A stretch of DNA of 64,000 nucleotides from a virus. Its lineage: Duplodnaviria > Caudoviricetes. Shown one piece after another: positions 5,915 to 51,976 of the stretch. The notes beneath the pieces were generated by a model that was not told where the DNA came from, made no database searches, and was given only the letters and a program-made list of their open reading frames with translations. Each line of letters starts with the position of its first letter. Position 1 is the first letter of the stretch. Made by a program: the position numbers and the translations under genes. The stretch is taken from positions 45,745 through 109,744 of the IMG/VR virus record IMGVR_UViG_3300028833_000098. One strand, written 5' to 3'.

Positions 5915-5948
5915 TAAGCCTCATCTATATAATAAGGAGGTGAATGTA

Positions 5949-8900
5949 ATGGCCCGTAACTTAGTTACACAGACATTAAATATTCTCCAAGGTGGCGTCA
6001 AAGAAGCTGGTAAAGATTATTTTTCTAATATGATATCTTTCTACAATGATGCCAAAAATGTTAAGAATACACTGATAAATTCCGGTACGGATGTATCAGA
6101 TACGTTTGCTCGTTTAAAGAGAACCAATGTTACTAAAGCTATTTCGGATTGGTTCTACCAGGAAGAATCTTCTTCTGAGATGGAGCTCAATGGTAACACA
6201 GATGAATTCGATCCCGGATTTAAAGGTTCTGATTCTGATAGTCCAAAATTAGACGGTGAATCAAGTAAGCCATCTGGTCTTACTGTTGATGCTATGATGA
6301 ATATCTCCAATAAGCAAACAAATGCTATATTGAAGGTAGGTCGTCGTCAGAACGAACAGTCAGTGGCTAACACCGCAGAAATCATTTCTACAATCGATAC
6401 TCGTTCTGCAGAAATGATTACTTCTTTGAATAATATCAACAAGACACTGTTGGGAATCAGTAGCCGTCTTGATAAGATCATCGAATTACAGGCTGTTCCA
6501 CTCACAGATCAAAAGGAAATTGATAAGGGTGGTCTCTATCAGGATGGTAATCTATCGCTGATGAGAATCTTTGAAGCTACAAAACAAAATGTTTTGACAA
6601 CCGGACCAATGTCATTATTGACAACTGGTATCGATATGCTTCGTTCAGGAGCATTGACACCAACGGCTCTTGCTGGTATTGGCATCAAAGGCCTTGCTGG
6701 TAAGATAAAGGTTAACGGTAAATCATTCGATGATTGGGGTAATGCATTCAATGAGTTGATTGGAACTGCAACCCAAACGGCAATGAATGAAATGATCAAT
6801 TCCAATTTCTTCCAAAAATACATTGGTAAGATAACTGGATTTGAAGGTAATAAGGATTATGGAACGATAGTCCCAAATCATTATGATAATAAACGTGCCG
6901 TGTTTGACGGAATGACAAGACAATCTATTGTCAATGTAATTCCGGAAATGCTTGCTAAGATCAATGAGTCATTATCAGGTCAATCATATTCACTTGATAG
7001 TCGTGGTAAATGGGTAGCTGGTCCTGCGAAGAATGAGTTCAATGAAGTAACGCGTGCTTCATTTGGTAGCTCTGGTCTCAAGGATAATACTATAAATTCA
7101 ATTTCCAATGCTGGTGTACAGAGTATTGGAAAGAAGATACCAACGGCTGATATTGAAAAAGCTGCAAAGGCTCTCACGATGACCATCGTTATGGATCAAC
7201 ACGCTAAGGGTGATCGTGCATTTACAATATCACAACTCAAGGGTGATTTAACAAACCAGGTCATTCAGGCATGTGAAGTATTGTCAATGACAGGTGGAGA
7301 TCCAAAATACTGGGCAAAGGTTTGTAATTCAATCATTATACAACTTTCATCTGGTATGATGGATGCTGCAGGTTTTGTTCGTAATGTAAATGACTCTGTT
7401 CAAAGGATGATAAATGAAGCTACTCAGTTTGCTCAGTCTGGTAAACAGAATGCTTCACAAGCAACAACGTTGTCATTCAATATGGCAGCTAACCAGTTCT
7501 TGGAACAATATGCACCTAAGGCAGAAACCGCCAAGATTGCTGAATCACATAACAAGGGTACTCTTATCGATGGTAAAAACATCAGAGTTGATGAAAGCAA
7601 TAAGGTTGGTAAATTCTCTGTTAATCAGTACATCGGAGGTATCTTCTATTTACTCAATAGAGGTATCAATGTTCGTATTGATAAAGACGGTTCTAAATAC
7701 GATGGTATTAATCTTGCTGATGTAAAACCTGACTCTGTACCATATGTATCTGATGATACGTTTGGCAAGATGGTCAAAGGTATGCTTGCTGGCAATAAAA
7801 ATGCCGTTAGTGATGCCGTTAAAGAAGAGATGGGTGTTGCTAAGAAGGAAAAAGGATTCATCAGTAAGATACTCGATAATCCTGCAATGCTTTTCAATTC
7901 ATTGACGAATATGTTCACTGGAGGTAGTGTAAATTTCCAGGGATTGAAAGACAAAGCCAAGAGTATACTTGGTGAAGAAAGATATAATGCCATCGCTGAT
8001 AAGCTCTCTGGTGTTAAAGATCGCATTACTCATGATGATAGATATATTGCAGCTAAACTTGCAGCAGAAGAAACTGTTGAAAAGTTAAAGAACAAGGGCA
8101 ATGAGTTATATGATAAATTTGGTCATACACGTATTGGAAATAATATGATGTATGCAAAGGATTCATTAAAACTCAAGGCTGCTGAAGATACCATCAATCA
8201 TATGAAAATTGATGATGAGATGGATCAAGAAGCTGTGTCAATCGCAAAGTATTATACAAGCAGAGGTATGCTTGATGAAGCAGCTTCGGCAGTATCAGGT
8301 ATAAAGAATGAGAATGTAAAAACTGCATTTTTGAACTTTGTAAGTATTCAGAAGAAGCGTTTACTTGGCCAACAAGCATTAGCCGAAGGAGAAACTCCTG
8401 ATATCGGATCAATATTAATTGAAAAAGATATCAAGGAGGGTAAGGATGGCAAGCCAGGTACAACCAATTCATTGTTATTCAAAATACTTGGTATAGTTGG
8501 TAAGATTGGTAAGTTCGTTGGTAATATGGCAACTCGTGGTATTACCAACATCTTCTATGGCTTGAAGTCAATGGGTCAAGCTTTGTTCGGTTATGAAGAC
8601 TTTGATCCTGTTAAAGGTATCAAGTACAAGAACAAAGGTATCTTTAGAAATCTTACAACTGAACTTGTCGCAGCTCAATGGAGAACAGCGAAGCATATAG
8701 TCAATGGCATCAGTAATCGAGTATTTGGTGAAGGTGATGCCGAATTCGTTGACGGAAAACTTGTTAATACCAAAAAGAAAACTCTTCATGAAAGATACAA
8801 TGATAAAATCGACAAACTCGCCAGAACCAAAAATATTGTGGATGAAAACGGTTTTGTCATTGACAGTGAAGAGAGTTGGCTGAATAAAACGGCAATAGGT

Positions 8901-11900
8901 TCCTATAGTCGTGAAGCAAAGTTTGTTGACGGAAAGTTCCAGGGATACGAACTTCGAAAAGACACTGCCATGACATATGCCGACACGTTGAAACATCCAA
9001 TTGAGGCTGTTTCCAAGGCTCTTGGAAACTTCAAACAGAATTTGGATTTCGTTGGTGAGAAAGCTGTTGAAGGAGTAAAGACAGCTATAACCGAAGTATC
9101 AGGTTTCCTCAAAAATCTGAAAACAAACATCGGAAAAGCATGGACAGGTTTCAAGAATACCAAGGTTGGTAATGCATTAACAAATAACAAAATCACAAGA
9201 GGATTCTTCTCTGGATGGAATCAAGCAAAACAGGCTAGACTTGAAAAGCAACAAAAGAAGAAGAAAGAAGAAGACAGATACGAGCATCCGCTTCAAGCAG
9301 AAATCGTTGATAGTATATCTCCTACAGAAGGACAAGCCACAGGCCATAAAAAGAAAAGCATATTCCATGAGATATATGAAAAGCTCTTCGGAAGTAAAAA
9401 TGATAGCGTAGTATCTCTGTTGAAGAAACAGGTTGACTTCCAGGAAGAAGAAGCTTCAGAAAATAAGAATAATACTACCGATGATGAATCTGGTAAGAAA
9501 AAGGGAATCATTGAAAGAGGCAAGGATTTCATAGCGTCAGCAAAGGCTAAAGTAACAAGCATGTTTTCATCTGAAAAGGACATTTCTCCTGCTGACGGTG
9601 CCGTTAGTGGTGGTGGCATGCTCAGCCATATCGGAAACACCTTAGGTAGTATGGCCAAGATGTTCGGTGGTTTCTTACAGATGTTTGCAGGTGTTGCTGA
9701 ACTGATTGGTTCGATAGTTATGAGTTTGGAGGGATTCCAAGCATTACGAGATCTTGTAAAGAGTATTCTCGTTGATGGTTTGAAACCTTTGAACGAAGTA
9801 TTCTATACAATCATAGATCTGATAAAACCTGTTACAAAGGTATTGACGAAGATAGTTAAGGTAATCGCTGAAACTATTAGTACAATAGCAAATGCAATTA
9901 TCGATACAATCTCGCCTATCATAGAAGCATTAGAACCAATATTTGATTCGTTGTTTAAGATACTATCACCTATTTTGAAAGTAGTTACAGTAATACTTGA
10001 CGTAGTACTTATGCCTATCAAGATGATACTCGAAGTATGTCAGCCTCTATTTGAAGGAATTGCATACAGAGTACAAGCTATTTCAGGTATACTTGAAATG
10101 GGCGTTGGCTTCTTGATGTCTGGCTTAGGAAAGATAATCACTGGTATCGGATTCGTTGCAGATCTATTGGGTAAATTCTTACCCGGTGATGACAAGGAAG
10201 TTGATGTTACTCTTGGTGAAGTAGGACTAAACATAATGAATGGTGCGGACGAGATGATGGATCAAGGTAAGCAAGACTTCCTCGAAGGTATCGAAGGTGC
10301 CTGGGGCAAACTTCTTGAATTCTTCACCGGTACACCATACGAAGGCAAGTCCAAAGAAGTTATTTCAGAAGCATACGGCGTTCCAGCTAAACTCGGCAAT
10401 GACTTCGGAGCTGGTGATGTTTATACAACAAACAACTATTACGGTTCAGGTAATCCTATGGATCAACACTCATACGGAAATTTCATGAACATGTCAAATC
10501 GTGGTTGTGGACCTGTTGCGCTTGCTGATGCATACGGTCGTCGTTCAGGTAACCAGGTTAATCCTGCATTACTCACAGGCGTAATGGGTGCAAGTGGAAC
10601 ATATGATCCTAGCAGAGGAACATCGGTTTCTTCGATGATGGCTATGGGTAATGCCATGGGAATGGGTATGCGTGCAGGTGGAGTTACTGCAGCTTCATTA
10701 CAGCAAGCATCTCCTACCAATCCAATCACAATTCTTGGTAGTGGTGCTGGATTCGGCACACGTAAAGGAAGCAATCACTATGTCAACGTGGTTGGTTCTG
10801 ATAAGAATGGTGGTACATATGTATCCAATCCATTAACAGGTAGAATCGAAAGACATTCAACAGGTAACATCGTTAACAATTCTAAACTCGGTCTATACGG
10901 CTCTGGTGACGATAGTGATCTATCAGAGTATGGATTCTCACAGGATGCACAGGATTCACTCAATCGTCTCAAGGAGATTACCAATAAACTCACTGGTATG
11001 TTCCTTGGTGACGATGATAGTACTACTCGTGCTAAGAACAAGAAGGCTGTTGAACATATGAAGAACACCCTCAAGAAAGAGGATTACGATGCTGTCGAAA
11101 CACAGGTTGTTGCTGAACTCAAGAATCGTTATCCAAAATATGAAGACGAAACCGACGATGAATATGAGAAACGTATAAGACTGAAACTCGTTACTCCCGA
11201 AGGTACTAAGTTACTTGTTAGCTTTGGTTCTGATAAGATGAAGAATACCGTTGAAGGTAGAATTGCATCACAGAATGAAGGAATCAACTCAATGATGGAG
11301 GCTGATAAAGCTTCTCGTGAAGCATTGTCTGCAGCATATGATTCATTTAAATCACAACTTGCATCATCGGGTGTTGAATCAGTTACAGGTGCCGAGATGG
11401 CAATGTTTGAACCAATCATTCATCTCACTCCAGAGCTTACAAAACAAGAAGCAAATGGTAGATACATTTCTTCACCTGTACATGACTTCTTTAATGCAAC
11501 GAGCGTTGAAGGTAAGGTTGGTGCCAATAGATCCGGTGGTGCAAAGGGTACTGTTTATAGTGCTGGCCGTGGTGGTTGGTTCGGTAATTACGGTGGTCCT
11601 CAAAACGACGAAGGTGTTGGTTCTACAGGTAAGGTTCATGAAGGTGTACTCCTTCATTATCTCAATGACGCTGGTGATGGTAATGCAGTAGCTAGAGCTA
11701 TAACCGGTGGTACAGTAACATACGTTACAAAGGATAAAGAAGGTGCTGGTAATGGTCTTGGTAATGCTGTAAAGTGGCGTGACTCTGGTGGTATGTATCA
11801 CTGGTACATGCATATGGCATCCATCGATAAGGATGTACAGGAAGGTACTAACATCGAACCAGGTCAGCTCATAGGTTACTTCGGCAAGTCTGGTCTATCG

Positions 11901-14048
11901 GATGATTCTGGAAGCAACGTTCTCAGATATGTTGTTACATCTGCAGGTCCTCAGGGATCTACCGGTGACCAGGGTTATATAAACCCATTCACATATTGGC
12001 AGTTCAGAGCAATGTCAGATGACCTGATTGGTAACTCTGAAAAGGAGAAGATCTATAATTATCTCGTTAATCATTTCGGTATGAGTGAAGCTGGTGCAGC
12101 AGGTGTTATGGGTGTACTCTCAAATGAAGGTATGCTCGAACCTGAACCATACGCAGCTCAAATGGAAGGTATTTTCGGTAACAATAAGGCTGAAATGTCC
12201 AAGAAATATTCGACACTTGAAGCAATGAATGATTATACCGTCAATACGTTATTCCCCAACTATGAAAGAAATGGTGTTGGAATAAACAAGGGAGGTTATC
12301 TTTCTGACGGTAAATATCTCCCTGGTATCGGCCTTGCACAATGGACAGGTCCTCGTGCTCGAGCATTATATGACTTTGCTAAATCAAAGGGTATGAACTG
12401 GTATGATCTCCAGGCACAGCTTGACTTTATGGAAGCTGAAAAGTCCAGCACATTTAGTTCATTGATGACAATGCTCGGCAGTAAGACGATAAGTCCTAAA
12501 CAGGCTGCTGATGCATGGATGACTCAATACGAGGCTGGTGCATCAGGTACTAATCCATATGATTCATGGTTAAGTGCAACTCAGATCACTAACCGTGAAA
12601 ATGCTGCAGAAAATCTTTATCGTGAACTGTATGGTCATGTTGCAAATACTGCCGCTACTGCAAAACCAGATGATGACGGTGTCTATAGAGGAAAGTTCAT
12701 TGCATCTGCAACCAATCCTAATGCATTTTCAGGAGATGGTTATTTCTCTGCAAACGGCGGAGCAATATTGGCGGATTATGGTAAACCAACAATAACATCA
12801 GTAAATATTAACGGAAGCCCATCAGGTAACTCACCACTACATGAGTTCTTTAGTAAGACCGCCGGTGGTAAGGCAATGAGTGGTGAAGGAAACTGGTACA
12901 AACAGCGTAACTCTCCAAATAGTAAAGGTCAGGGTTCTTCTGGTGCTGACCATTACGGTATAGATTTCTGGTGGGATTCTAACACAGAAGGTAGAGAACT
13001 TCATGCAACAACCGGTGGTGTTGTTGATCAAGTACAAGGTGGCAATGCTTATAACGGTGGCTGCGGTAATAACATTCGTTGGTTGGATGATTCAGGTTAT
13101 CTACACTGGTATATGCATATGAAAGATACGCCAAAACTCAGTAGAGGTGCTAAAGTTTCTCCAGGTCAACTACTTGGATATGTTGGTAATACCGGTGATA
13201 GTAGTGGAGCTCATCTGCATTATAGTATCATCGATAATTCCAAATTTAACGGTTATTCAAGTTCACCTGGTAATGTGAATCCGTTGTTGTACTTCGGCAA
13301 TTATGATTCCGCAGGTCCACAGACAAATCCGAATAGTCGTGGTGGTTTGACATTCTTGTCTGGCGAAACAACACCTACATCTCAGGGATACATTGCGAGC
13401 GCAGTAACAAAGATGTTGGAAGCTCGTGATGCTGCAGATCCAGGTTTCGATATATGGAACGCTGCAAATTATATATCCAATACAGGTGAACCAAGGAATT
13501 TGGCATTATCTCAAATAGCATCATACTATAACAACGCAATTAGTACAGCCAATCTGGCAACAACAACTAGAAACAATCCCGGTTTTATGAGCTTATACGG
13601 TCCTAGTCGTTGGGATTTTGATAATGGTAAAACAATGTCAATGACAGATCTCAATGATATGCTTGCAGATTATATGTCTGGAAAGAAAAGACCTTTCACA
13701 AACTTCTTGTCGGCCCTTAAATCGGCAACAGGTTCAGGTGACATTATGCCTTCTTCTGACATACCACCAATTGATATTAACAAACTCATGGAAGATTCTT
13801 CCAATAATGGTTTCAACGCGATGCAGCAATACGTTAACAAGTACGACATTAAAACTGATGACTCACACACAACGGACATGTTGGATAAATTGAGTAGTAT
13901 GACGTTTAATGTCAGAGCTAAACGCGTAGAGGAACTTCTTGAAATATTGATAGCAAAGGTTGATGGTAACCGCGCTCCAGACGCACCACTTCCTGAGTTA
14001 TTCGATGAAGGAATTCCCGAAGCTGTTACGAGACTCTCTATGGGTTAA
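5949..14048 (+). CDS. Tape-measure-like tail protein with C39-like peptidase, phage-tail lysozyme and two M23 peptidase domains
   Basis: About 2700 aa; amphipathic TMP-like repeats (about 9650-10250); GCGPVALA...NHYV (C39-like); AGAAGVMG..NE...GIGLAQWTGPR (lysozyme); HYGID...YMHM...HLH (M23); ATG 5949 follows AAGGAGG. Confidence 0.8.
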   Translation: MARNLVTQTLNILQGGVKEAGKDYFSNMISFYNDAKNVKNTLINSGTDVSDTFARLKRTNVTKAISDWFYQEESSSEMELNGNTDEFDPGFKGSDSDSPKLDGESSKPSGLTVDAMMNISNKQTNAILKVGRRQNEQSVANTAEIISTIDTRSAEMITSLNNINKTLLGISSRLDKIIELQAVPLTDQKEIDKGGLYQDGNLSLMRIFEATKQNVLTTGPMSLLTTGIDMLRSGALTPTALAGIGIKGLAGKIKVNGKSFDDWGNAFNELIGTATQTAMNEMINSNFFQKYIGKITGFEGNKDYGTIVPNHYDNKRAVFDGMTRQSIVNVIPEMLAKINESLSGQSYSLDSRGKWVAGPAKNEFNEVTRASFGSSGLKDNTINSISNAGVQSIGKKIPTADIEKAAKALTMTIVMDQHAKGDRAFTISQLKGDLTNQVIQACEVLSMTGGDPKYWAKVCNSIIIQLSSGMMDAAGFVRNVNDSVQRMINEATQFAQSGKQNASQATTLSFNMAANQFLEQYAPKAETAKIAESHNKGTLIDGKNIRVDESNKVGKFSVNQYIGGIFYLLNRGINVRIDKDGSKYDGINLADVKPDSVPYVSDDTFGKMVKGMLAGNKNAVSDAVKEEMGVAKKEKGFISKILDNPAMLFNSLTNMFTGGSVNFQGLKDKAKSILGEERYNAIADKLSGVKDRITHDDRYIAAKLAAEETVEKLKNKGNELYDKFGHTRIGNNMMYAKDSLKLKAAEDTINHMKIDDEMDQEAVSIAKYYTSRGMLDEAASAVSGIKNENVKTAFLNFVSIQKKRLLGQQALAEGETPDIGSILIEKDIKEGKDGKPGTTNSLLFKILGIVGKIGKFVGNMATRGITNIFYGLKSMGQALFGYEDFDPVKGIKYKNKGIFRNLTTELVAAQWRTAKHIVNGISNRVFGEGDAEFVDGKLVNTKKKTLHERYNDKIDKLARTKNIVDENGFVIDSEESWLNKTAIGSYSREAKFVDGKFQGYELRKDTAMTYADTLKHPIEAVSKALGNFKQNLDFVGEKAVEGVKTAITEVSGFLKNLKTNIGKAWTGFKNTKVGNALTNNKITRGFFSGWNQAKQARLEKQQKKKKEEDRYEHPLQAEIVDSISPTEGQATGHKKKSIFHEIYEKLFGSKNDSVVSLLKKQVDFQEEEASENKNNTTDDESGKKKGIIERGKDFIASAKAKVTSMFSSEKDISPADGAVSGGGMLSHIGNTLGSMAKMFGGFLQMFAGVAELIGSIVMSLEGFQALRDLVKSILVDGLKPLNEVFYTIIDLIKPVTKVLTKIVKVIAETISTIANAIIDTISPIIEALEPIFDSLFKILSPILKVVTVILDVVLMPIKMILEVCQPLFEGIAYRVQAISGILEMGVGFLMSGLGKIITGIGFVADLLGKFLPGDDKEVDVTLGEVGLNIMNGADEMMDQGKQDFLEGIEGAWGKLLEFFTGTPYEGKSKEVISEAYGVPAKLGNDFGAGDVYTTNNYYGSGNPMDQHSYGNFMNMSNRGCGPVALADAYGRRSGNQVNPALLTGVMGASGTYDPSRGTSVSSMMAMGNAMGMGMRAGGVTAASLQQASPTNPITILGSGAGFGTRKGSNHYVNVVGSDKNGGTYVSNPLTGRIERHSTGNIVNNSKLGLYGSGDDSDLSEYGFSQDAQDSLNRLKEITNKLTGMFLGDDDSTTRAKNKKAVEHMKNTLKKEDYDAVETQVVAELKNRYPKYEDETDDEYEKRIRLKLVTPEGTKLLVSFGSDKMKNTVEGRIASQNEGINSMMEADKASREALSAAYDSFKSQLASSGVESVTGAEMAMFEPIIHLTPELTKQEANGRYISSPVHDFFNATSVEGKVGANRSGGAKGTVYSAGRGGWFGNYGGPQNDEGVGSTGKVHEGVLLHYLNDAGDGNAVARAITGGTVTYVTKDKEGAGNGLGNAVKWRDSGGMYHWYMHMASIDKDVQEGTNIEPGQLIGYFGKSGLSDDSGSNVLRYVVTSAGPQGSTGDQGYINPFTYWQFRAMSDDLIGNSEKEKIYNYLVNHFGMSEAGAAGVMGVLSNEGMLEPEPYAAQMEGIFGNNKAEMSKKYSTLEAMNDYTVNTLFPNYERNGVGINKGGYLSDGKYLPGIGLAQWTGPRARALYDFAKSKGMNWYDLQAQLDFMEAEKSSTFSSLMTMLGSKTISPKQAADAWMTQYEAGASGTNPYDSWLSATQITNRENAAENLYRELYGHVANTAATAKPDDDGVYRGKFIASATNPNAFSGDGYFSANGGAILADYGKPTITSVNINGSPSGNSPLHEFFSKTAGGKAMSGEGNWYKQRNSPNSKGQGSSGADHYGIDFWWDSNTEGRELHATTGGVVDQVQGGNAYNGGCGNNIRWLDDSGYLHWYMHMKDTPKLSRGAKVSPGQLLGYVGNTGDSSGAHLHYSIIDNSKFNGYSSSPGNVNPLLYFGNYDSAGPQTNPNSRGGLTFLSGETTPTSQGYIASAVTKMLEARDAADPGFDIWNAANYISNTGEPRNLALSQIASYYNNAISTANLATTTRNNPGFMSLYGPSRWDFDNGKTMSMTDLNDMLADYMSGKKRPFTNFLSALKSATGSGDIMPSSDIPPIDINKLMEDSSNNGFNAMQQYVNKYDIKTDDSHTTDMLDKLSSMTFNVRAKRVEELLEILIAKVDGNRAPDAPLPELFDEGIPEAVTRLSMG

Positions 14049-14637: not shown

Positions 14638-14691
14638 TTATCATAGTAATAATATATATGTAGAACTTTAGAATCCTGAAGGGTAGCATAG
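14638..14691 (-). promoter_or_regulatory. Putative phage early promoter element, copy A
   Basis: CTATGCTACC-N16-TTCTACATATATATTATTACTATGATAA; 28-mer identical to 51949-51976; core resembles the phiKZ early motif TATATTAC. Confidence 0.7.
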
Positions 14692-14798: not shown

Positions 14799-15224
14799 TT
14801 ACTTCTTGAAAGCGTCTCTCTTGATCTTGAGCTTGGGCTCTTCATGAGCCTTAGTTGTCGACTTGTACTCCTTACCCTTATTGGGTCCATCGATTGTAAT
14901 GATGCCCTTTGAAACCTTCTCAGGTACCTTAACAACCTTGAGAGTTGCAGGAGCTGTCTTATCGTCAGCTGCAGGAATGTCGAAAGCTCTCTGTTCATCA
15001 TGCATAAAGCCGGATACGAACTCGGGGATCTGAGTTACGGTGTTTGTGATATCGGGAGTCATCTCATCAAGAATACCGATCTCATCCTTTGACGGATATC
15101 CTGCCTTTGCATAGAACTTCTTTGCATCCTGAACGAATGCATGCTGAAGATTTGCAGCAGGTGTTGCTGTGCTGTTGCCATAGTTAGCAAAAGCTGCGAA
15201 TGAAAAGCCTTTAGTAGTTGCCAT
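14799..15224 (-). CDS. Putative HU-like DNA-binding protein
   Basis: 141 aa; biased codons; basic C-terminal arm (KVPEKVSKG...NKGKEYKSTTKAHEEPKLK) reminiscent of the HU/IHF beta-arm. Confidence 0.35.
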   Translation of the reverse strand: MATTKGFSFAAFANYGNSTATPAANLQHAFVQDAKKFYAKAGYPSKDEIGILDEMTPDITNTVTQIPEFVSGFMHDEQRAFDIPAADDKTAPATLKVVKVPEKVSKGIITIDGPNKGKEYKSTTKAHEEPKLKIKRDAFKK

Positions 15225-15318
15225 TTTAATTTCCTCCTTGGATTTTAATTGTATTTATTTCAAGAGATTATATCTCTTGCTACCGATGAAACTATATGTG
15301 TTTTTAAAATTAAAAATT

Positions 15319-15510: not shown

Positions 15511-15563
15511 GGTAACAATTTCTCCTTTCGTTGTACTCACATTTCTTTTATTTTGTTCTCTTT

Positions 15564-15977
15564 TTATTTATATATATCTATGATGGTTTTAATCCATCCA
15601 TAAGTTATGTCCAAAGGTAACTCAAACGGTATATCACAATCAAGTGACATGATAATGTTATTATATGACATTTTGTTCTTGTTACAAACGATGTCATCTA
15701 TGTATGCTGATAATGTTTCCAAAATGTTATCATCACACGATAGTTTATTATATGTTACACAACATGGGTTTGGTTCATATAATATTTTTATCTCATATAG
15801 TTCTTCCGTATGAAATATATTTACATATTCATTGTATATTCTATTTGACATATCAATGTACAGTTCGTCAATATGTTTTATTATTACATCTTCATCAAAA
15901 ATGGCTTTTCTGTACATTATATGAAATTGTATGAGTGTGTTTATTATTAGTGGTAAAGCTTCTTTTATATTTATCAT
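15564..15977 (-). CDS. Hypothetical protein
   Basis: ATG 15977 after SD AAAGGAGGTG; very AT-rich. Confidence 0.55.
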   Translation of the reverse strand: MINIKEALPLIINTLIQFHIMYRKAIFDEDVIIKHIDELYIDMSNRIYNEYVNIFHTEELYEIKILYEPNPCCVTYNKLSCDDNILETLSAYIDDIVCNKNKMSYNNIIMSLDCDIPFELPLDITYGWIKTIIDIYK

Positions 15978-16075: not shown

Positions 16076-17125
16076 TTAGAAATCGAGATCATCACGTTTA
16101 TTATCGGATGTATCTACTGTTGATGAACTATCAGGAAGATCCTTATCGCCACTATTTGTAGTGCCGTTATTACCACCTGACTTTGAGGAAGTGTTGGATG
16201 TGGATTTTTCATCATCTTCATCATCCTCAGATCCTTTATTTGCGCGTGTATCATAGTGATCGATCTTGGCTTTAAGATTTTTCATCTTAATATTGTACTT
16301 ATCGATCATCTTTGTGTATCTATGTTCGATACGTTTCTTGCGCTGGGTTGCGGGAATCTTCTTATATTCATCATAAGCTTTCTTTGCAGCTTCATACTCC
16401 TTGGAGATCTTCTCATATTGTTCGATCTTCTTATCATATGATCTGGAAAGGCATGCTGATATAAGTGATATAGGATTCAGCGAAGCAGCTGTTCTGAACA
16501 CACCATTCAAAATACCGAATACACCTTCGATTACACCGACAACTGTATCTGCTGCTGCAGTAACAATACCAACTGATGCAGCTTCCTGAGTAATTGCATC
16601 GCCTTTTGGAGTAATGGGTTTATTCTTCTTAACAGCAGCTGCTGCCTTCTCATACATCTTCAATACTTTCTGATCATAATCTTTTCCGTTTTTAGTTATG
16701 AACTCGAAACGAACCTTGTCATCATCAGAAAGATTGGTTGGTTCCTCATATACGAGACCATTTTCTGTTGCCTTTGTGTAAGTGAAGATTGTCATCATTA
16801 CTGATATCATGATGCGTATTCCGTTTGTAAAACATACCGCATATGCAGTATTCTTGTCATTCGGTTTAGCCATGTATTCACCTATCATTTTCTTCCATAT
16901 AGGTTTATGCAATGATGCGAACATATCCTTTACACCGGTGATAACTTTTGTTGGTGCATTTTTAACACCATCACCAAGAGTCTTGACATCTTTTGATATA
17001 ATATCATAACAAGGATGTTTGGTGATATCACCTTTCATCTTGTATTCATCACCGCTCTTGTTTTTGTATGTTCTTTTAACATTCTTCAATGTTATCTCAG
17101 TATACTTTTTGAACTTTTCATACAT
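16076..17125 (-). CDS. Putative virion (head) protein
   Basis: 349 aa; ITQE-A motif then hydrophobic segment and coiled coil; co-transcribed with structural genes. Confidence 0.45.
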   Translation of the reverse strand: MYEKFKKYTEITLKNVKRTYKNKSGDEYKMKGDITKHPCYDIISKDVKTLGDGVKNAPTKVITGVKDMFASLHKPIWKKMIGEYMAKPNDKNTAYAVCFTNGIRIMISVMMTIFTYTKATENGLVYEEPTNLSDDDKVRFEFITKNGKDYDQKVLKMYEKAAAAVKKNKPITPKGDAITQEAASVGIVTAAADTVVGVIEGVFGILNGVFRTAASLNPISLISACLSRSYDKKIEQYEKISKEYEAAKKAYDEYKKIPATQRKKRIEHRYTKMIDKYNIKMKNLKAKIDHYDTRANKGSEDDEDDEKSTSNTSSKSGGNNGTTNSGDKDLPDSSSTVDTSDNKRDDLDF

Positions 17126-18878: not shown

Positions 18879-19454
18879 CTATTTTATTTTATTTAAACGC
18901 ATAACGTTTCTGATTGAATCAGGCATTTCTTCCATATAAGTTATCGTTATCTCATATCTCGGATTACAAGAATAATACTTATTGGATATGGATTCAATTA
19001 TCAAGCAGTCGTTTTCCATGATTCCAACATGACCACGTTTTTCATTCGGTTGTAACATATCGTAGATCGCTTTGTCGTAGTTATCAACATCACCAGTATT
19101 TACCCATGGACGAAGTATTCCCATCTCAGCCAATATGGTTTGTGTTTTGGTAAATGAAACAGGTGTCTTACAAAAAATATTAGATTCAATCTTACACGGT
19201 GTATCAATGAATAAACCGTGTAGCAACGGTCTAACCTTTTTGTCAAAGAAAGATTGGTTCTTTGCAGCACCTGGTACGTAAACACGATAGCCACACAAAC
19301 GTGGACGGTGTGATGGTACCGGAATCATAGGAATAGTAAACTTCACTTTTTTCCATTTGATGTTTGTATATACCGCCAAGATTGACGATACGTTTTGTTG
19401 TACAGAAGTAGAGGCACTCTTTACGAGTGCCTCAACCGTTTCTTTATTATGCAT
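18879..19454 (-). CDS. rusA: RusA-like Holliday junction resolvase
   Basis: PVPSHRPR N-terminal motif, catalytic-like GDVDNYDKAIYD, ENDCLI, KYYSCNPRYEITI. Confidence 0.8.
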   Translation of the reverse strand: MHNKETVEALVKSASTSVQQNVSSILAVYTNIKWKKVKFTIPMIPVPSHRPRLCGYRVYVPGAAKNQSFFDKKVRPLLHGLFIDTPCKIESNIFCKTPVSFTKTQTILAEMGILRPWVNTGDVDNYDKAIYDMLQPNEKRGHVGIMENDCLIIESISNKYYSCNPRYEITITYMEEMPDSIRNVMRLNKIK

Positions 19455-20790: not shown

Positions 20791-21477
20791 TCATAAAGTA
20801 GATTGGCCACTATCTGATTGACCAACCACATATTCTGGACGAGTAGAATATATGCATGTCGCTTCTATTGATTTCACCCAGAATTCATTTCCTTGAGGGT
20901 TTATATCAGAATCATATAATATATTTGTGATCATTAATATTACTTTTGTTTCTTGAGAATTATTCCCTATACGCTTACCATCTTCTGCAGCGATTTTATA
21001 TGGAGACTGTGTCCAATCAACCGATCGGAATGTGGGACCTGTTACGAGTTGTATCAGCTCACCATTGAATGGTTGGAATGAAGTCCAGTTACTACCTTTT
21101 GCAGATAGAGGGAAATCGATCTCATTGCATACGTCAGACATTGTTTTGACAGTTGATGTATATGCTATTTGAGTTTCACTTCTACTACCAGCTTTGAATA
21201 ATCCGAATGTAAATATTAGACCAGTGACATCACGGTTGATATCAACAAAATCATCGATTCTTGGATGTCCTGGATATGTTCCTGGTCCAGGTTCGGTTGA
21301 CCAGTTATCAGAAGAAGAACCCGATTTACCAGTAAGATCATCAACATGTAGTCCTTTCTGACCATCAGTTCCGGTATCAATTATTTGAATATTGTCACCG
21401 GCGTATCTTACTGACAATTTGTTATTCTGATCAAATCCTAATCCATCGCCAACATTCAGTTTTAACTGATATTTCAT
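20791..21477 (-). CDS. Tail-fibre-associated protein
   Basis: N-terminal LNVGDGLGFDQNNKLSV fibre-shaft-like repeat. Confidence 0.5.
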   Translation of the reverse strand: MKYQLKLNVGDGLGFDQNNKLSVRYAGDNIQIIDTGTDGQKGLHVDDLTGKSGSSSDNWSTEPGPGTYPGHPRIDDFVDINRDVTGLIFTFGLFKAGSRSETQIAYTSTVKTMSDVCNEIDFPLSAKGSNWTSFQPFNGELIQLVTGPTFRSVDWTQSPYKIAAEDGKRIGNNSQETKVILMITNILYDSDINPQGNEFWVKSIEATCIYSTRPEYVVGQSDSGQSTL

Positions 21478-22356: not shown

Positions 22357-25300
22357 TTATGGTTCATCGGTCGGTTCGGGATCAGGTACAAGTATCAAAC
22401 CAGGGCCAAGAGTAATTGTAACAGGCGATGTTCCATTGTATTCAATGTTGTTTGTTCCATCAGTGATAGTGAGGAGTTCTCCACCTCCACCTCCGCCGGC
22501 GTAATTTGGTGAGATTTTGAGATTACCCTCTTCATCTATACAGAGTTCACCATTATCGGTGACATCCTGATATTTCGATAATCTTACACCAAGAACATTG
22601 TTGCTATAAATACGCAAACCTTTTGATCCAGAACCTGTTGAATCGAATTGTTGACGACCATTCTCTGTTGTTGAATCATATTCACTGTTCTCATTGACTC
22701 TGACACCAAGGAATCCATTTGTATTGAATCTGAGTCCTCCATTGTAATATGGACTGAATGCCTCATCGAAATCTGGATCTGTTGATTTTGTACCATTTGA
22801 ATAGTCATATATCTTAACAGATACAGATGGTTTGAATTGTCCAGATGTTGAAGAAGTTATACCCTGGAACTCATTCAGATTTATATCGAGACCAGGCATG
22901 AATGAACCATCTTCTGCAGTTGAGAATTGACGTACATAACATGGATCGCCAGCTTCATCAGAAGATATGATACCATATTCTTCTTTGATGAATCTTTGCC
23001 ATGCTTGAAGAGCTGTCTCACCAGGTCTAATGTATCCATCACCGGTACCATTCAGAGCGTAATATTTTAATACACCTGAAGCGTCAACTGCATTAACATT
23101 TCCATCATGAGTAATATCTAGGGTGCCAAGCAGTTGTGATGTTAAATCAAGTATTGGTGATATCTCGTAGGTAAGTGTCGACGAATTGTAATGTGCTTCA
23201 TATGTAACATGGTAATATCTTCCATTATACATATCTTCAGGACGTTCAGTCATATCGGTATATCTCTTACCATCAACATAGTCTATTCGATGTATATAAT
23301 TCGGGTCACTATAGAAAATTCCGTTATTAAGATATCCTTGAATTGCCGTTTGTTCAGCAGCATATACTGCAAGAATTTGGGATGCCTGTACAGCGGTTAC
23401 TGGTGAATGAAGAAGTGGGAAGTCGACAATTTCAGGAACTCTCCATGTATATGCCGACACAACTATCTCCATAGTATCTCCGTTTATTGCTTCAACAACA
23501 TATACCTTGTTTGTTTCACCAGGATTCGGAAGAGATGCATATGACGGATAGTATTGATACATTGGTTCATATGTGGATTCCGATGCATTCCATACATAAC
23601 GTTTCTTTTTGTCTGCGTCAAAGTAGATTACTTCATTTTCACCATTAACAGGGAATGATTCTACACTGGGATATTCCTGTGTTACCCAACCCTTGAAATA
23701 GATATGTGGTGCTATTGAATTTTCATCAGCATTCTTTATTTCCAATGGATTGGTATATGTTTTTGATTCCCTGTAGAGCTGTATTCCAACGACATTGTCA
23801 TTCGAAATACCAACTGCGGCACTACCGAGACGTGGAACAATTTCTCTACTATTGACACGAAGACCTATTGATGAAACATAATCTGATGATGATCCAGGTG
23901 TGATGTATCTCAATCCACCATATAACGATCTTGCAATGGTATGTGTGTTTACATCAGGATCAGAGAAATTCACATCGAATATTGATGGTGTCACGAATCC
24001 ATAGTTTTTATCAACAACGACATATTGATTTATCTCATAACAGTAATTCTTTTGCGAAATTCTGTCATAATAGAAACCAAAGTTGGTTGGTGTTATTGGA
24101 TCAGAATATGTTTCACCATCATATGTCTCATAGAATATATTCTCGTGATAGTAACCCGGTGTCGCATTGGATATTCCTTCGTATACATTTACACCAAACC
24201 TGTTGAACTTGGACATTCTCATTCCAAGGCCCTTGTTTATTGTAAGACCTGGAGTTATTTTCAATGCTCCATCCACACCTTCTGTGGTTGTTAGACCTCC
24301 ACCAAGTTGATTATACCATGGCAATTGTCTAAGTGATTCAATCTTGGATATCTTTACTCCAAGTTTATTATCACCTGCATCACCAAGTGAGAAATCATCA
24401 ACTCTCACATTGATCTTACCACCATCATAGTATCCGGATGCAAGTTTTGCTGAAGCATCGTCACCAACATTTGTACCTATCTCAAGGAAGTTACCAACGT
24501 TTACGGCGAGACCACCTGATGATGACATATCACCTGATCCATCGATAGGTGTACTCAAATTATCAGATGTATCATTGTCAGATTTACCCAATAGAGAATT
24601 GGTGATAGCCTCTGAATCTTTGATTATCCTTAAACCTGACATGTTGTATGCATTCTTATCAGAAGCAGACATCTTCTTGAGTAAGTTAATACCAAGAAAT
24701 GATTCTGTTGTTAACGATTGTGATACCGTTGGTACGGAAACAGGCCAGTTTGTTATTGGACTATTACGGTCCGTGAATGAATTGTAAGGTATAACATTCA
24801 ATGAGAAATCGGGTGCAATAAAAGTACCGTTTGATTTTCTTAAAGTATTATGAGTTTCGCCGATCGGTGTTACTGTATAATGCTCTTTACTGATAGCTAT
24901 ACTAGGATTCTCAAAACTTGCATTGTTAAATGCATTAAGACCTGATATGTTATCAGTAACATTGTTTGAATCTATCTTACCATGGATAAGATCTATACCT
25001 ATCATTGATGATTGAACATCCATAGATGATGTATGTGTATCATAATACTTGAGGCCCATACCAACATAAGGCTTTATGGTAAAGAACTCAACCGTATATT
25101 TAGACCCTTCAACTGATGCGTCGTATACCGTTGTGACTCTGCCTATACAAGACTCCCTACAAACATAATCAGTATCGAGGTTTTGTTTAAGGGTACCGTC
25201 TGCGGTTCTGTAATTTTCATCAGAGAAACTCGTGAGTATCAGATCATTAACTTTGAAAGTTTGAGCTGTTTTAGCAGTACCAATCTCGTTACCATTGATC

Positions 25301-26085
25301 TTTATAAGAATATCCTTTGTATCCGATGACTGTTCATCATCTACATATAAAAGACCATCTGCACCCTCACCTGTTGCGCCATATACACCATCGAAGAAGA
25401 ATACTTCAGGAGCAATTTTTGATTTATCTATGTACAAACCATTCATTGCTTTTGACGCACTCTCTTCATACAGTTTTAGAGCGTCTTCACCATTTCTGAT
25501 GTTTACACCAAGACCTCCACCACGTAAATCTTTTCCGTTAACACTTTCGTCGTATATCAACGATGCATCAGTGTAACCAACTACGTTTATAGGTAACATG
25601 CTTAAAGCAATAATGTTTTCAGCAGTATCCCAATATGTATAGCCTATATATGATTTACGATCACTATTTGAATATGATTTGATATAGAATGGAATGTTTG
25701 CATGACCTTTGTCATGTGACCATGATTCCATTTCAAGACTGAGATCAGCAATTGTATCAAATAGCATTAATCTCTTGATACCGAACTCCGCAGCAAGTTC
25801 ATCAATAACCCAATCTTTTATTGTTGAGAACGAGACATTGGTAACATTACCAAGGCCGACATCAGCTGCTGTTATTACAACAACACCGTCTCTACCATTT
25901 ACAGAATTAACAATACGAGAAAGTGTGTTGTTAATAGCCTGCCACATCTTTTCGATTGTTATGCTAAGAGGTACTCCAGCACTTTCGTCATCAACGGATT
26001 TTGTGTTAGTGATAGGGTTTATATCAGATAGAGCAACACCATCACCAACGATTTCTTCACGTTTTAACTGAATACGATCCTGCAT
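22357..26085 (-). CDS. Long tail fibre protein with beta-shaft repeats and a dockerin-like module
   Basis: ATG 26085 after AAAGGAG; VNSVNGRDGVVVITAADVGLGNV fibre motif; many GGL(G/A)V(N/R) repeats; DITHDGNVNAVDASGVLKYYA dockerin repeat. Confidence 0.75.
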   Translation of the reverse strand: MQDRIQLKREEIVGDGVALSDINPITNTKSVDDESAGVPLSITIEKMWQAINNTLSRIVNSVNGRDGVVVITAADVGLGNVTNVSFSTIKDWVIDELAAEFGIKRLMLFDTIADLSLEMESWSHDKGHANIPFYIKSYSNSDRKSYIGYTYWDTAENIIALSMLPINVVGYTDASLIYDESVNGKDLRGGGLGVNIRNGEDALKLYEESASKAMNGLYIDKSKIAPEVFFFDGVYGATGEGADGLLYVDDEQSSDTKDILIKINGNEIGTAKTAQTFKVNDLILTSFSDENYRTADGTLKQNLDTDYVCRESCIGRVTTVYDASVEGSKYTVEFFTIKPYVGMGLKYYDTHTSSMDVQSSMIGIDLIHGKIDSNNVTDNISGLNAFNNASFENPSIAISKEHYTVTPIGETHNTLRKSNGTFIAPDFSLNVIPYNSFTDRNSPITNWPVSVPTVSQSLTTESFLGINLLKKMSASDKNAYNMSGLRIIKDSEAITNSLLGKSDNDTSDNLSTPIDGSGDMSSSGGLAVNVGNFLEIGTNVGDDASAKLASGYYDGGKINVRVDDFSLGDAGDNKLGVKISKIESLRQLPWYNQLGGGLTTTEGVDGALKITPGLTINKGLGMRMSKFNRFGVNVYEGISNATPGYYHENIFYETYDGETYSDPITPTNFGFYYDRISQKNYCYEINQYVVVDKNYGFVTPSIFDVNFSDPDVNTHTIARSLYGGLRYITPGSSSDYVSSIGLRVNSREIVPRLGSAAVGISNDNVVGIQLYRESKTYTNPLEIKNADENSIAPHIYFKGWVTQEYPSVESFPVNGENEVIYFDADKKKRYVWNASESTYEPMYQYYPSYASLPNPGETNKVYVVEAINGDTMEIVVSAYTWRVPEIVDFPLLHSPVTAVQASQILAVYAAEQTAIQGYLNNGIFYSDPNYIHRIDYVDGKRYTDMTERPEDMYNGRYYHVTYEAHYNSSTLTYEISPILDLTSQLLGTLDITHDGNVNAVDASGVLKYYALNGTGDGYIRPGETALQAWQRFIKEEYGIISSDEAGDPCYVRQFSTAEDGSFMPGLDINLNEFQGITSSTSGQFKPSVSVKIYDYSNGTKSTDPDFDEAFSPYYNGGLRFNTNGFLGVRVNENSEYDSTTENGRQQFDSTGSGSKGLRIYSNNVLGVRLSKYQDVTDNGELCIDEEGNLKISPNYAGGGGGGELLTITDGTNNIEYNGTSPVTITLGPGLILVPDPEPTDEP

Positions 26086-26233
26086 TATTTTCACTCCTTT
26101 ATGAAATAAATAATTATGGTTGATATAATTCTCGACCAAACCATAATGTATGTTTTAACCATTTACAGGTAAACTTACCTCGAGGTTTCTTATACATATA
26201 TAATACAAATGATTTTTGATAGGAGGCATTTTT

Positions 26234-29200: not shown

Positions 29201-30379
29201 GATAGACCTTCGGAGGTATCTTCTGATAGTAACTTCGCAGGGTATAAGATCGTGGACGAATATATGCTGGATGATCTTTCACTGGTTCAGGAGCTTAAAG
29301 AAATGCGCAGTGTTGTTAAGTTTGAAGATACAACAGAACCCACAGAAGATCAATATCAATTGTACAAAGATTACATGGCATTGGTTGATGAGAATCCTTC
29401 GTCACCAACGAATCTCTTCTTCATGATTAAATATGCTTACAACAGAGCATATGATAAGATAATTGATCCCGAACCAGTTGTATCATTTGAGATATTTAAA
29501 CAGGCTGCAAATGAGAATCTCATAAAGTTCTCGATGTTGTGTAAGAGATATGATGAGGTAATGTCTGACTTTGATCGTCCTAAATGGTTCTCCACATACA
29601 TGGAACTTCTGCATACAATAACAGAAATGACATCATATACAGACGTCGAGGACTGGATGGTCATGTACAATACATTGAACTCATATGTCATGAATGTAAA
29701 TGCAACATTCGGCGATACAACTGTAAATGTCAACGGCGGTATAGAGATTCAGCTCGTACCATTCGTTGAATCATCTTTGATGACATCTGTTGATAATGAT
29801 GGACGTTACAGATTTGCTGATTTTGTATCCGCATTTACTCAGGTACATAAAGCAATCGAACCTGTTATATTCAAGAGACTTGATGGAAATCATTATCTTG
29901 ATTGCAAGCTCATCGGCACATATGGTAAATCTCGTACATATGTATCTGATACAAGTCCCGACGAGTTCTGGCCAAGTTTAAATCTTCAGCTTGAATTCGA
30001 TGTAAGGTTATTCAATAAGAGTCTGTCTACGAACACTATCAATGAACTCAGATTGATCGTTAAATCATACTTCAATAGAATTACAACAGTTCATTCTCCA
30101 AATAGAGATACCAATATGGATAACAACATCTACATTTCACATCTCATTCAACAGATGGAAGCACATGATAATGTAGCATGGATGAAGTTCAAAGGTTGGT
30201 ATACTAACAAGAAGGATGATACATCATACTACAAAGATGCTAATACGCAGGCCATAGAACTTAAATGGAATCAGCTTGAAGAAATGGGTAGATATGAAAA
30301 TGGTGAATCTCGTTTAGAGAACTTTACACCAGAGATGTTTATCCTTGAAGATGATAACATTGTGATCAATATTGTATAA
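26234..30379 (+). CDS. Baseplate wedge protein
   Basis: About 1381 aa; NEGFITKAVLPDSIY, YTCHGKSAN, GGTDIGSVESVR and FFKRRDD motifs of gp6-like jumbo-phage wedge proteins; ATG 26234 after AGGAGG. Confidence 0.7.
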   Translation: MADENIMLNNYSDDSQIKSFMMNVLAPRVFHDIPINVLNSGMFSLTSEYISQITEQLSFTSSFYFNEGFITKAVLPDSIYAEAAIFNIGYSFATPASTNILLELRISDIYNNAVFNATNGLYEFILDKNTKFNLPEGYTYSLDYDILIQYKDKESSSTASSIPAWNVQYTNMDEPNVCATNKRTYITYRVTDVWLCLMVQVNEYERSTYSVVNTMTNGVPNEDKVISCQNHIAGFDVTYIDGNGNRTPLPRNHILAIHDTVPDGDPYVHYIMDNQQTIRFLWQFNGSRYFIPEPNSSFEIVVYTCHGKSANAPNYKNEKQPSVIAASNRFTNNANVTKAAFVIGGCVGGTDIGSVESVRRDTIEAYNTANVLSTDHDLDEWFKTFYFKNVLYPYFFKRRDDPWCRTWSGYIALNENDNYIYKTNTLHAHLTYRELYNNADNTVSKNEIIIPPGWVWVYTDDTYSERDKYVVVPYTKADGKTIENARTLATINDEFVFANPFGIRIQKDPFAIGYFNPWVNQFVTGTRITKNEVINVNEIDDNDVAFSYHASHIISNIVRTYKDDCYTLTTHILPTVPSDSSTGSTEELVKHVRVNVIPPQFTAKMFEYFQNVQDIYAETIPMLVRTNETDRIPFNPERTYLCATKNQGVPENGDDPRINASDWILGRIWLEDNTNSDGKVYQLPITASGIQTFGSDDIWGENGIAEGQETSEDVTITIAPGLEDDSLISFERVASQNYYEMRLKESSSRGSITKITVGEVSETDLQKFGENKLVRLGKSYQPTIYINVYYNITNSSGDPVTEHVSYAISNAANIYSPGYISTSPDPSNPTYTWVRNEEEGVYECDFNNVGPTGIILYADMKPAPQSGSYSYYRVKFSDIPANTPLFYVHSDEFPMDENYMRVVAHALVNGSETGYVEMQPVKRESDGSYEYQVTMYPLNELIDIDNRINISSVYNGGGSWIPTNVATSVSLDASDPQIKISVLMKTKNPDRPSEVSSDSNFAGYKIVDEYMLDDLSLVQELKEMRSVVKFEDTTEPTEDQYQLYKDYMALVDENPSSPTNLFFMIKYAYNRAYDKIIDPEPVVSFEIFKQAANENLIKFSMLCKRYDEVMSDFDRPKWFSTYMELLHTITEMTSYTDVEDWMVMYNTLNSYVMNVNATFGDTTVNVNGGIEIQLVPFVESSLMTSVDNDGRYRFADFVSAFTQVHKAIEPVIFKRLDGNHYLDCKLIGTYGKSRTYVSDTSPDEFWPSLNLQLEFDVRLFNKSLSTNTINELRLIVKSYFNRITTVHSPNRDTNMDNNIYISHLIQQMEAHDNVAWMKFKGWYTNKKDDTSYYKDANTQAIELKWNQLEEMGRYENGESRLENFTPEMFILEDDNIVINIV

Positions 30380-51922: not shown

Positions 51923-51976
51923 CTATGCTACCGGCTATTATTTTGAGTTTCTACATATATATTATTACTATGATAA
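51923..51976 (+). promoter_or_regulatory. Putative phage early promoter element, copy B
   Basis: Same CTATGCTACC-N16-28mer arrangement as copy A. Confidence 0.7.

Follow-up and report, generated by a model that had tools for sequence, protein, structure and literature searches.

A split dockerin-like module in a fibre-like protein of an uncultured rumen phage, with a possible role in attachment to host cohesins

In Ruminococcus flavefaciens, the dockerins of group 4 and group 2 are distinguished by an additional helix, helix 4, and those of both groups bind the cell-wall cohesin ScaE; group-2 dockerins hold a single calcium repeat and still bind ScaE tightly, and the ScaB and CttA dockerins bear extended insertions (PMC12270676). 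Here, we describe a segment that is very probably a genuine split dockerin of this Ruminococcus group-4/group-2 kind, located in a fibre-like protein of an uncultured virus. The gene lies in a stretch of 64,000 nucleotides, referred to below as the window, which makes up the right-hand end of an IMG/VR virus record of 109.7 kb (IMGVR_UViG_3300028833_000098). It occupies positions 22357..26085 on the minus strand and encodes 1242 amino acids (aa) from an ATG at 26085, in an open reading frame (ORF) that is open from a TTG at 26139. An AAAGGAG 8 nt upstream, and the MQDRIQLK with which all homologues of the protein begin at this point, make the ATG the probable true start. Residue numbers follow P0001, which is counted from the upstream TTG (ORF 22357-26139, minus strand).

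Like the ScaH dockerin in its complex with the ScaE cohesin (8AJY), the phage module has a calcium loop and helix in repeats of the xDAxDASxxLxYYA kind, together with the extra helix 4. Unlike the ScaH dockerin, the phage copy lies inside a likely fibre, has no signal peptide and carries a 63-aa β insert between its repeats; it has also lost the first calcium loop and has A-V in place of G-R, and its binding to a cohesin is a prediction. The second half of the module, comprising the calcium repeat, helix 3 and helix 4, resembles the ‘naturally truncated’ group-2 dockerin 9GVB (PMC12270676), with 45/45 residues of 9gvb_C aligned to model residues 148-201 (root-mean-square deviation (rmsd) 1.9, 36% identity, Z 3.8). 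Each cohesin binds two copies of a group-2 dockerin, whereas in the phage module a helix-1 partner is present in cis. The X-dockerins of ScaB and CttA (4IU2) are likewise group-4 dockerins in which extended insertions break the symmetry, and 4iu2_B matches the module model with Z 5.3 over 97 aligned residues; their inserts, however, pack on the X module, whereas that of the phage forms a separate β unit.

Among phage proteins, the fibres with immunoglobulin-like (Ig-like), BACON or carbohydrate-binding module (CBM) domains are comparable, in that a module for binding a host surface or matrix has been grafted into a structural fibre whose N-terminal anchor is conserved and whose distal parts can be exchanged. 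They differ in that the module described here is the host's own plug for protein-protein assembly. A full-text literature search returned no paper on a dockerin in a phage fibre or on cohesin-mediated adsorption, and the papers that name both concern other things.

The dockerin module in sequence and predicted fold

The module extends over aa 904-1058 (window 22966..23430, minus strand), as delimited by an AlphaFold2 (AF2) model and by fold matches in the Protein Data Bank (PDB), and its parts follow in the order helix 1, 63-aa β insert, short helix 2, calcium loop, helix 3 and helix 4. Helix 1 (23347..23403, minus strand; aa 913-931) is preceded by a degenerate calcium loop. Between it and the second repeat stands the Tyr-rich β insert (23155..23343, minus strand; aa 933-995; strands at model residues 77-139), which is followed by the putative calcium-binding loop with helix 3 (23047..23118, minus strand; aa 1008-1031) and then by the extra helix 4 (22975..23013, minus strand; aa 1043-1055; model helix 187-199).

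The initial annotation had reported two motifs at 23041-23430, and both are present there in the ORF: PVTAVQASQILAVYA at aa 913-927 (window 23359-23403) and LDITHDGNVNAVDASGVLKYYA at aa 1007-1028 (window 23056-23121). It had read LDITHDGNVNAVDASGVLKYYA as the calcium loop plus helix of a dockerin and PVTAVQASQILAVYA as a partner helix about 100 aa upstream, behind a degenerate loop; both assignments held, the two motifs being 94 aa apart. The loop of the second repeat is of the 12-residue type that has its ligands at positions 1, 3, 5, (7) and 12 and is followed by a helix, with D1008, T1010, D1012 and D1019 in addition to G1013. Across 15 fibre homologues of 31-74% identity, D1008, G1013, D1019 and Y1027 are invariant, and the consensus of the second repeat in this family is DVNxDGxIxAxDASxxLxYYA. 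In the first repeat the helix is kept (xASxILxxYA), and the loop before it is degenerate in this phage and in most relatives, with the canonical DxNxDGxxDxxD/E found in P0007, P0008, P0016, P0021, L067 and L069. Of the internal symmetry that had been claimed for the module, the helix in both repeats was thus recovered, whereas the first calcium loop is lost in this phage.

When aa 860-1100 were searched with HMMER against a library of 1.84 billion representative proteins, 13 further full-length fibre homologues (26-37% identity) were recovered together with about 41 short matches to the second motif (E 1e-6 to 1e-3), and 40/41 of the latter are true Dockerin_1 proteins. These true dockerins carry LRR, CAP, Big_2, transglutaminase or cohesin partner domains; one of them, the Coh-Doc adaptor P0054, shares 98% identity with an R. 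flavefaciens ND2009 protein, and another is annotated as Ruminococcus sp. The exhaustive search was needed, as a word-indexed homologue search found two close relatives only. By sequence, the best match in the PDB was the ScaH dockerin 8ajy_B (E 0.003), and the Dockerin_1 profile matched 10/15 members of the fibre family at E<=1, with a best E of 2.9e-6.

At the level of DNA, 8 of the 32 short matches between the 20-kb piece that holds the fibre gene and the R. flavefaciens genus fall exactly on the dockerin repeat, and in one of them 37/43 nt are identical to a repeat of R. flavefaciens 007c encoding DFNHDGKVDAVDAS. The module as a whole, compared with the 161 genomes of the genus to which R. 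flavefaciens ND2009 belongs in GTDB, gave one partial match, located in a bacterial membrane-protein pseudogene and not in a prophage. A lead to a protein combining Phage_cement_2 with a dockerin was traced to the repetitive P0030, which gave many zero-stretch matches and is without Dockerin_1, and this lead was rejected as spurious.

The fold was predicted with AF2 for aa 857-1079, from 15 fibre sequences and with no templates, at a predicted local distance difference test score (pLDDT) of 89.1. The model is a compact three-helix fold in which helices 1 and 3 are paired. In a structural search with VIA-align, run all-against-all over 48,161 PDB chains, rank 1 was taken by 8ajy_D (Z 9.4, rmsd 2.7 Å, 83/84 residues aligned, model residues 48-202), and ranks 2-11 were all dockerins, from C. 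thermocellum, R. flavefaciens, A. cellulolyticus, C. acetobutylicum and C. cellulolyticum. Foldseek, used as an independent search, gave 8ajy_B as its top match with a prob of 0.98 but an E of 0.058. Helix 4 aligned with 8ajy as well as with 9gvb_C of group 2. Helix pairing in a model and a dockerin match, both of which the initial annotation had asked for, were thus obtained, and the resemblance to group-4-type dockerins of R. flavefaciens that it had noted was borne out as one to the group-4/group-2 kind, including helix 4, with 8AJY as the best fold match.

A fold search of BFVD with the dockerin model returned nothing at E<=0.001. Below this level stand weak matches to A0A8S5TMP7, A0A8S5SEA3, A0A8S5M7J6 and A0A8S5VR01 of uncultured gut phages (about 40-110 residues, prob 0.69-0.87, 23-28% identity), and on these models other phages may carry dockerin repeats. 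The β insert (23155-23343), which was found in all module-bearing homologues, has a weak best structural match in the baseplate receptor-binding protein of lactococcal phage p2 (2wzp_R, Z 3.2); the insert could be a second binding site.

Host genomes and the modelled cohesin complex

To assign a host, the whole 110-kb record was scanned in 20-kb pieces against the same 161 genomes. A protospacer at window 16273..16307 (no strand assigned) matches, in 32/35 positions, a spacer of a 66-repeat CRISPR (clustered regularly interspaced short palindromic repeats) array in G014, a genome of the R. flavefaciens genus. A second protospacer, outside the window at G000 6045-6078, matches the final spacer in a G051 array of 5 repeats (31/34 positions, 29 of them contiguous). 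The other spacers of the array in G014 (64/65) are without a match to the phage, and no spacer match was obtained when, as a control, one 20-kb piece was run against 400 other genomes of the family. Short spacer-like DNA matches in G069, G066, G038, G020, G102, G073, G148, G117, G183, G184 and others do not lie in repeat arrays and were rejected as due to chance or coding sequence.

Both G014 and G051 encode full-length ScaE orthologues with an SPKTG sortase signal, together with further ScaE-like cohesins. The orthologues were identified via the ScaE of ND2009, which matches 2zf9_A at E 6e-27. Host prediction from CRISPR spacers, as had been proposed, thus led through two spacers to two genomes of the R. 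flavefaciens genus, both with anchored cohesins of the ScaE type, and we regard it as probable that the host is a Ruminococcus with such cohesins. Consistent with an origin in ruminant guts, DNA of the fibre gene was found in sequencing runs of 8 studies that sampled the guts of sheep (the probable source), cattle and goats, and other gut.

The module was then modelled in complex with the ScaE cohesin of G014 and two calcium ions, with three controls. The complex scored 0.77, 0.23 and 0.79, a median of 0.77 relative to 0.01 for the best control; the mark set for this score is reached by 58/80 solved complexes and by 2/110 mismatched pairs. Agreement between the runs extends to at least 9% of contacts, and the partner has a pLDDT of at least 89. 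In the modelled interface, contacts are made by helix 1 (aa 916-934), by loop positions 9-11 and by helix 3 (positions 13-15, 17-18 and 20-21); both helices lie flat on the cohesin as described for DocScaH, and the β insert stays outside except for one residue. The prediction with a ScaE-type cohesin suggested at the outset accordingly passes, with the canonical dockerin face in use, and the model shows this face to be intact and free in the phage module. Since complexes like 8AJY have been solved, the pass may reflect likeness or recall only.

Possible attachment through cohesins and competing explanations

The fibre-like protein is likely to be a virion fibre. In IMG/VR, 16 homologues were found on contigs of 34-294 kb, with protein lengths from 701 to 1366 aa. 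The N-terminal ~600 aa (about aa 10-600) are common to 16/16, the distal parts are variable, and the dockerin module is present in only 4/16 (L058, L065, L067, L069). Because so few of the homologues that share the N-terminal part carry it, the module belongs to an exchangeable distal part, as expected of a part for host recognition. A conserved N-terminal anchor with an exchangeable distal part is a feature of tail-fibre architecture. An N-terminal motif (aa 63-104) weakly matches PHROG ‘minor tail protein’ families (E 2.4e-4), and the leads obtained in the ESM Atlas are all fibre or baseplate families, with low scores (<=0.86). No signal peptide was found at the N-terminus, so the protein would meet cohesins only after lysis, for example on the virion.

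We lean slightly towards cohesin-mediated attachment of the phage to its host. In this reading, an uncultured jumbo phage of myophage-like kind that infects rumen Ruminococcus of the R. flavefaciens group would use the protein as a long virion fibre, probably a trimer, and the fibre would expose laterally a group-4/group-2 (type III) dockerin some 230 residues before its C-terminus. Outside the cell and with calcium bound, helices 1 and 3 would rest flat against the face with which a cell-surface cohesin binds dockerins; a sortase-anchored cohesin of the ScaE type or a free cohesin of the cellulosome would be the likeliest target. This contact would be a first, probably reversible, attachment, and up to three plugs per fibre might add avidity. 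More tentatively, and with less confidence than we place in the attachment, we propose that a rumen jumbo-phage lineage may have taken over the plug of host cellulosome assembly as its receptor-binding module, with a ScaE-type cohesin as the receptor, and that phage pressure may be one driver of cohesin-dockerin diversification.

Should the module bind a surface cohesin, this would be a way of attachment that we have not found described, in which the virus offers the host's own high-affinity plug to the host's socket. To our knowledge, almost nothing is known of the receptors of phages that infect the main cellulolytic rumen bacteria, and such binding would name a protein receptor for these phages. 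It would also connect predation by phages with the architecture of the cellulosome and with the way in which cohesins and dockerins diversify, and a ScaE receptor would be hard for the bacterium to lose without losing its machinery for fibre degradation. The module itself would be a naturally split dockerin, tolerant of a 63-aa insert and of a missing calcium loop, and of use in designer cellulosomes and as an affinity tag.

Several results weigh against this proposal. The Pfam profile Dockerin_1 (PF00404) scores 12.5 bits in this protein, relative to a gathering threshold of 22.9 (E 0.17), and covers profile positions 30-55 of 57, about half; the hidden Markov model check that had been suggested thus yielded a match below threshold, to the second half of the profile, and was firmer in the family than in this member. 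The first calcium loop is lost, with no acidic ligands when it is read back from a Q at position 12, and the second loop has T in place of D or N at position 3 (A in the 60% relative). The recognition positions 10 and 11 are A1017-V1018 (the family mostly has A-[VI] here, and P0003 has A-R), as against the G-R pair that defines ScaE recognition in groups 4 and 2 of FD-1, and because of this difference the cohesin specificity is not readable from the sequence. The 63-aa insert breaks what is otherwise a contiguous dockerin of ~60-85 aa and has no precedent of its size in solved dockerins. For the fibre assignment, PHROG matches are no better than E 2e-4, a weak footing; tblastn of the fibre against 50,697 GenBank phages gave no match; the N-terminal 312 aa, modelled by AF2 with 15 sequences, reached a pLDDT of only 55.8; and the neighbouring genes are mostly unannotated apart from one RusA-like nuclease, with RusA alone above the cut-off when ten neighbours were searched with Pfam. 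Each of the two spacer matches contains 3 mismatches. Dockerin-like modules also occur, as Peer et al. reportedly described in 2009, in non-cellulosomal proteins.

Binding to cohesins could also serve retention, with the virion hitch-hiking on plant particles and cellulosomes in places crowded with hosts, and a different tip protein finding the true receptor; Ig-like domains that keep phages on mucus would be an analogy. The position of the module, lateral and ~230 aa from the C-terminus instead of at the tip, fits such a role, as does the continuation of the fibre beyond it in Gly-rich repeats that are conserved in the family, and the other very large unannotated proteins encoded next to the fibre gene could be receptor-binding proteins. 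However, the fibre region containing the module is exchanged from one homologue to another, as receptor-binding parts are, and ScaE-type cohesins are covalently bound to the cell, so that binding them would amount to adsorption; we consider retention unlikely, if worth keeping in view. Somewhat less probable again is that the dockerin fold serves within the virion or in fibre folding, either as a calcium-stabilised knob or as a plug for a cohesin-like domain of the phage, with no host cohesin involved. The lost first loop, the residues at positions 10 and 11 that differ from those of known ScaE binders, and the dockerin-like modules outside cellulosomes mentioned above would all suit this use, and with the record at 41% of the genome a phage cohesin could lie in the remainder. 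Yet the 110-kb record has no Pfam Cohesin match, the family conserves the residues at the surface of helices 1 and 3, which make up the cohesin interface in the model, and the nearest sequences, in protein and in DNA, are cellulosomal dockerins of Ruminococcus.

We judge it improbable that the protein stays outside the virion and, once released at lysis, occupies host cohesins so as to block superinfection of neighbouring cells or disturb the cellulosome. Its gene shares a leftward string with the RusA-like gene, and its place in the virion is one that we infer; on the other side stand its length of 1242 aa with Gly-rich β repeats, an N-terminal motif common to minor tail proteins, the architecture of conserved N-terminus and swapped C-terminus, and the fibre and baseplate families that, at low scores, make up the ESM Atlas leads. 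A chance or convergent EF-hand-like motif unrelated to dockerins, which the Pfam score under the threshold might suggest, is scarcely credible: HMMER, the Dockerin_1 matches in the family, Foldseek, the fold ranks and the 37/43-nt DNA match all point to dockerins, relatives have both repeats, and the fold and profile results already contradict it. Attachment through a host cohesin is the explanation that we prefer.

Neighbouring genes and other features of the record

The 109.7-kb record was rated 41% complete by CheckV, which implies a full phage genome of roughly 260 kb. The phage encodes pieces of a split multisubunit RNA polymerase and a topoisomerase II, and the polymerase piece is nearest, at ~30% identity, to those of jumbo myophages of Bacillus, Listeria and Staphylococcus. 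At window 5940-14048 on the plus strand lies the gene for a tape-measure-like protein of 2702 aa, in which an M23 peptidase (aa ~2330-2440) is accompanied by a lysozyme-like part; this is consistent with a Gram-positive host. A tRNA scan of the window found none. The RusA-like gene at 18879-19454 (minus strand), encoding a Holliday-junction resolvase (Pfam E 3e-10), stands in the leftward string of genes with the fibre gene and one for a ‘virion structural protein’, and its synteny is kept in two related phages.

A promoter-like cassette of ~40 nt (of the type TTGA, 17 nt, TAcTAT), followed by a hairpin and a ribosome-binding site (RBS), was seen at window 51935-51976 and is repeated in the phage, with further copies at window 14638-14665 (minus strand) and at G000 29796-29835 and 8333-8372. 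Within the R. flavefaciens genus, at least 10 genomes have intergenic sites that it matches at 87-94%, which suggests mimicry of host promoters or shared mobile cassettes. Outside the window, an intergenic stretch of 132 nt at G000 720-851 is 89% identical to Ruminococcus G109:C11:115329-115460 (E 2.5e-41), and a small RNA, a regulatory element and a recent exchange are candidates for its nature. Also outside the window, 529 nt at G000 20848-21370 are 71% identical to G124:C66:73951-74479, marking a gene common to the phage and a Ruminococcus genome. Within the window, short stretches resembling a 5′ untranslated region or RBS at 15218-15266 and 15526-15581 match several Ruminococcus genomes at 79-94%.

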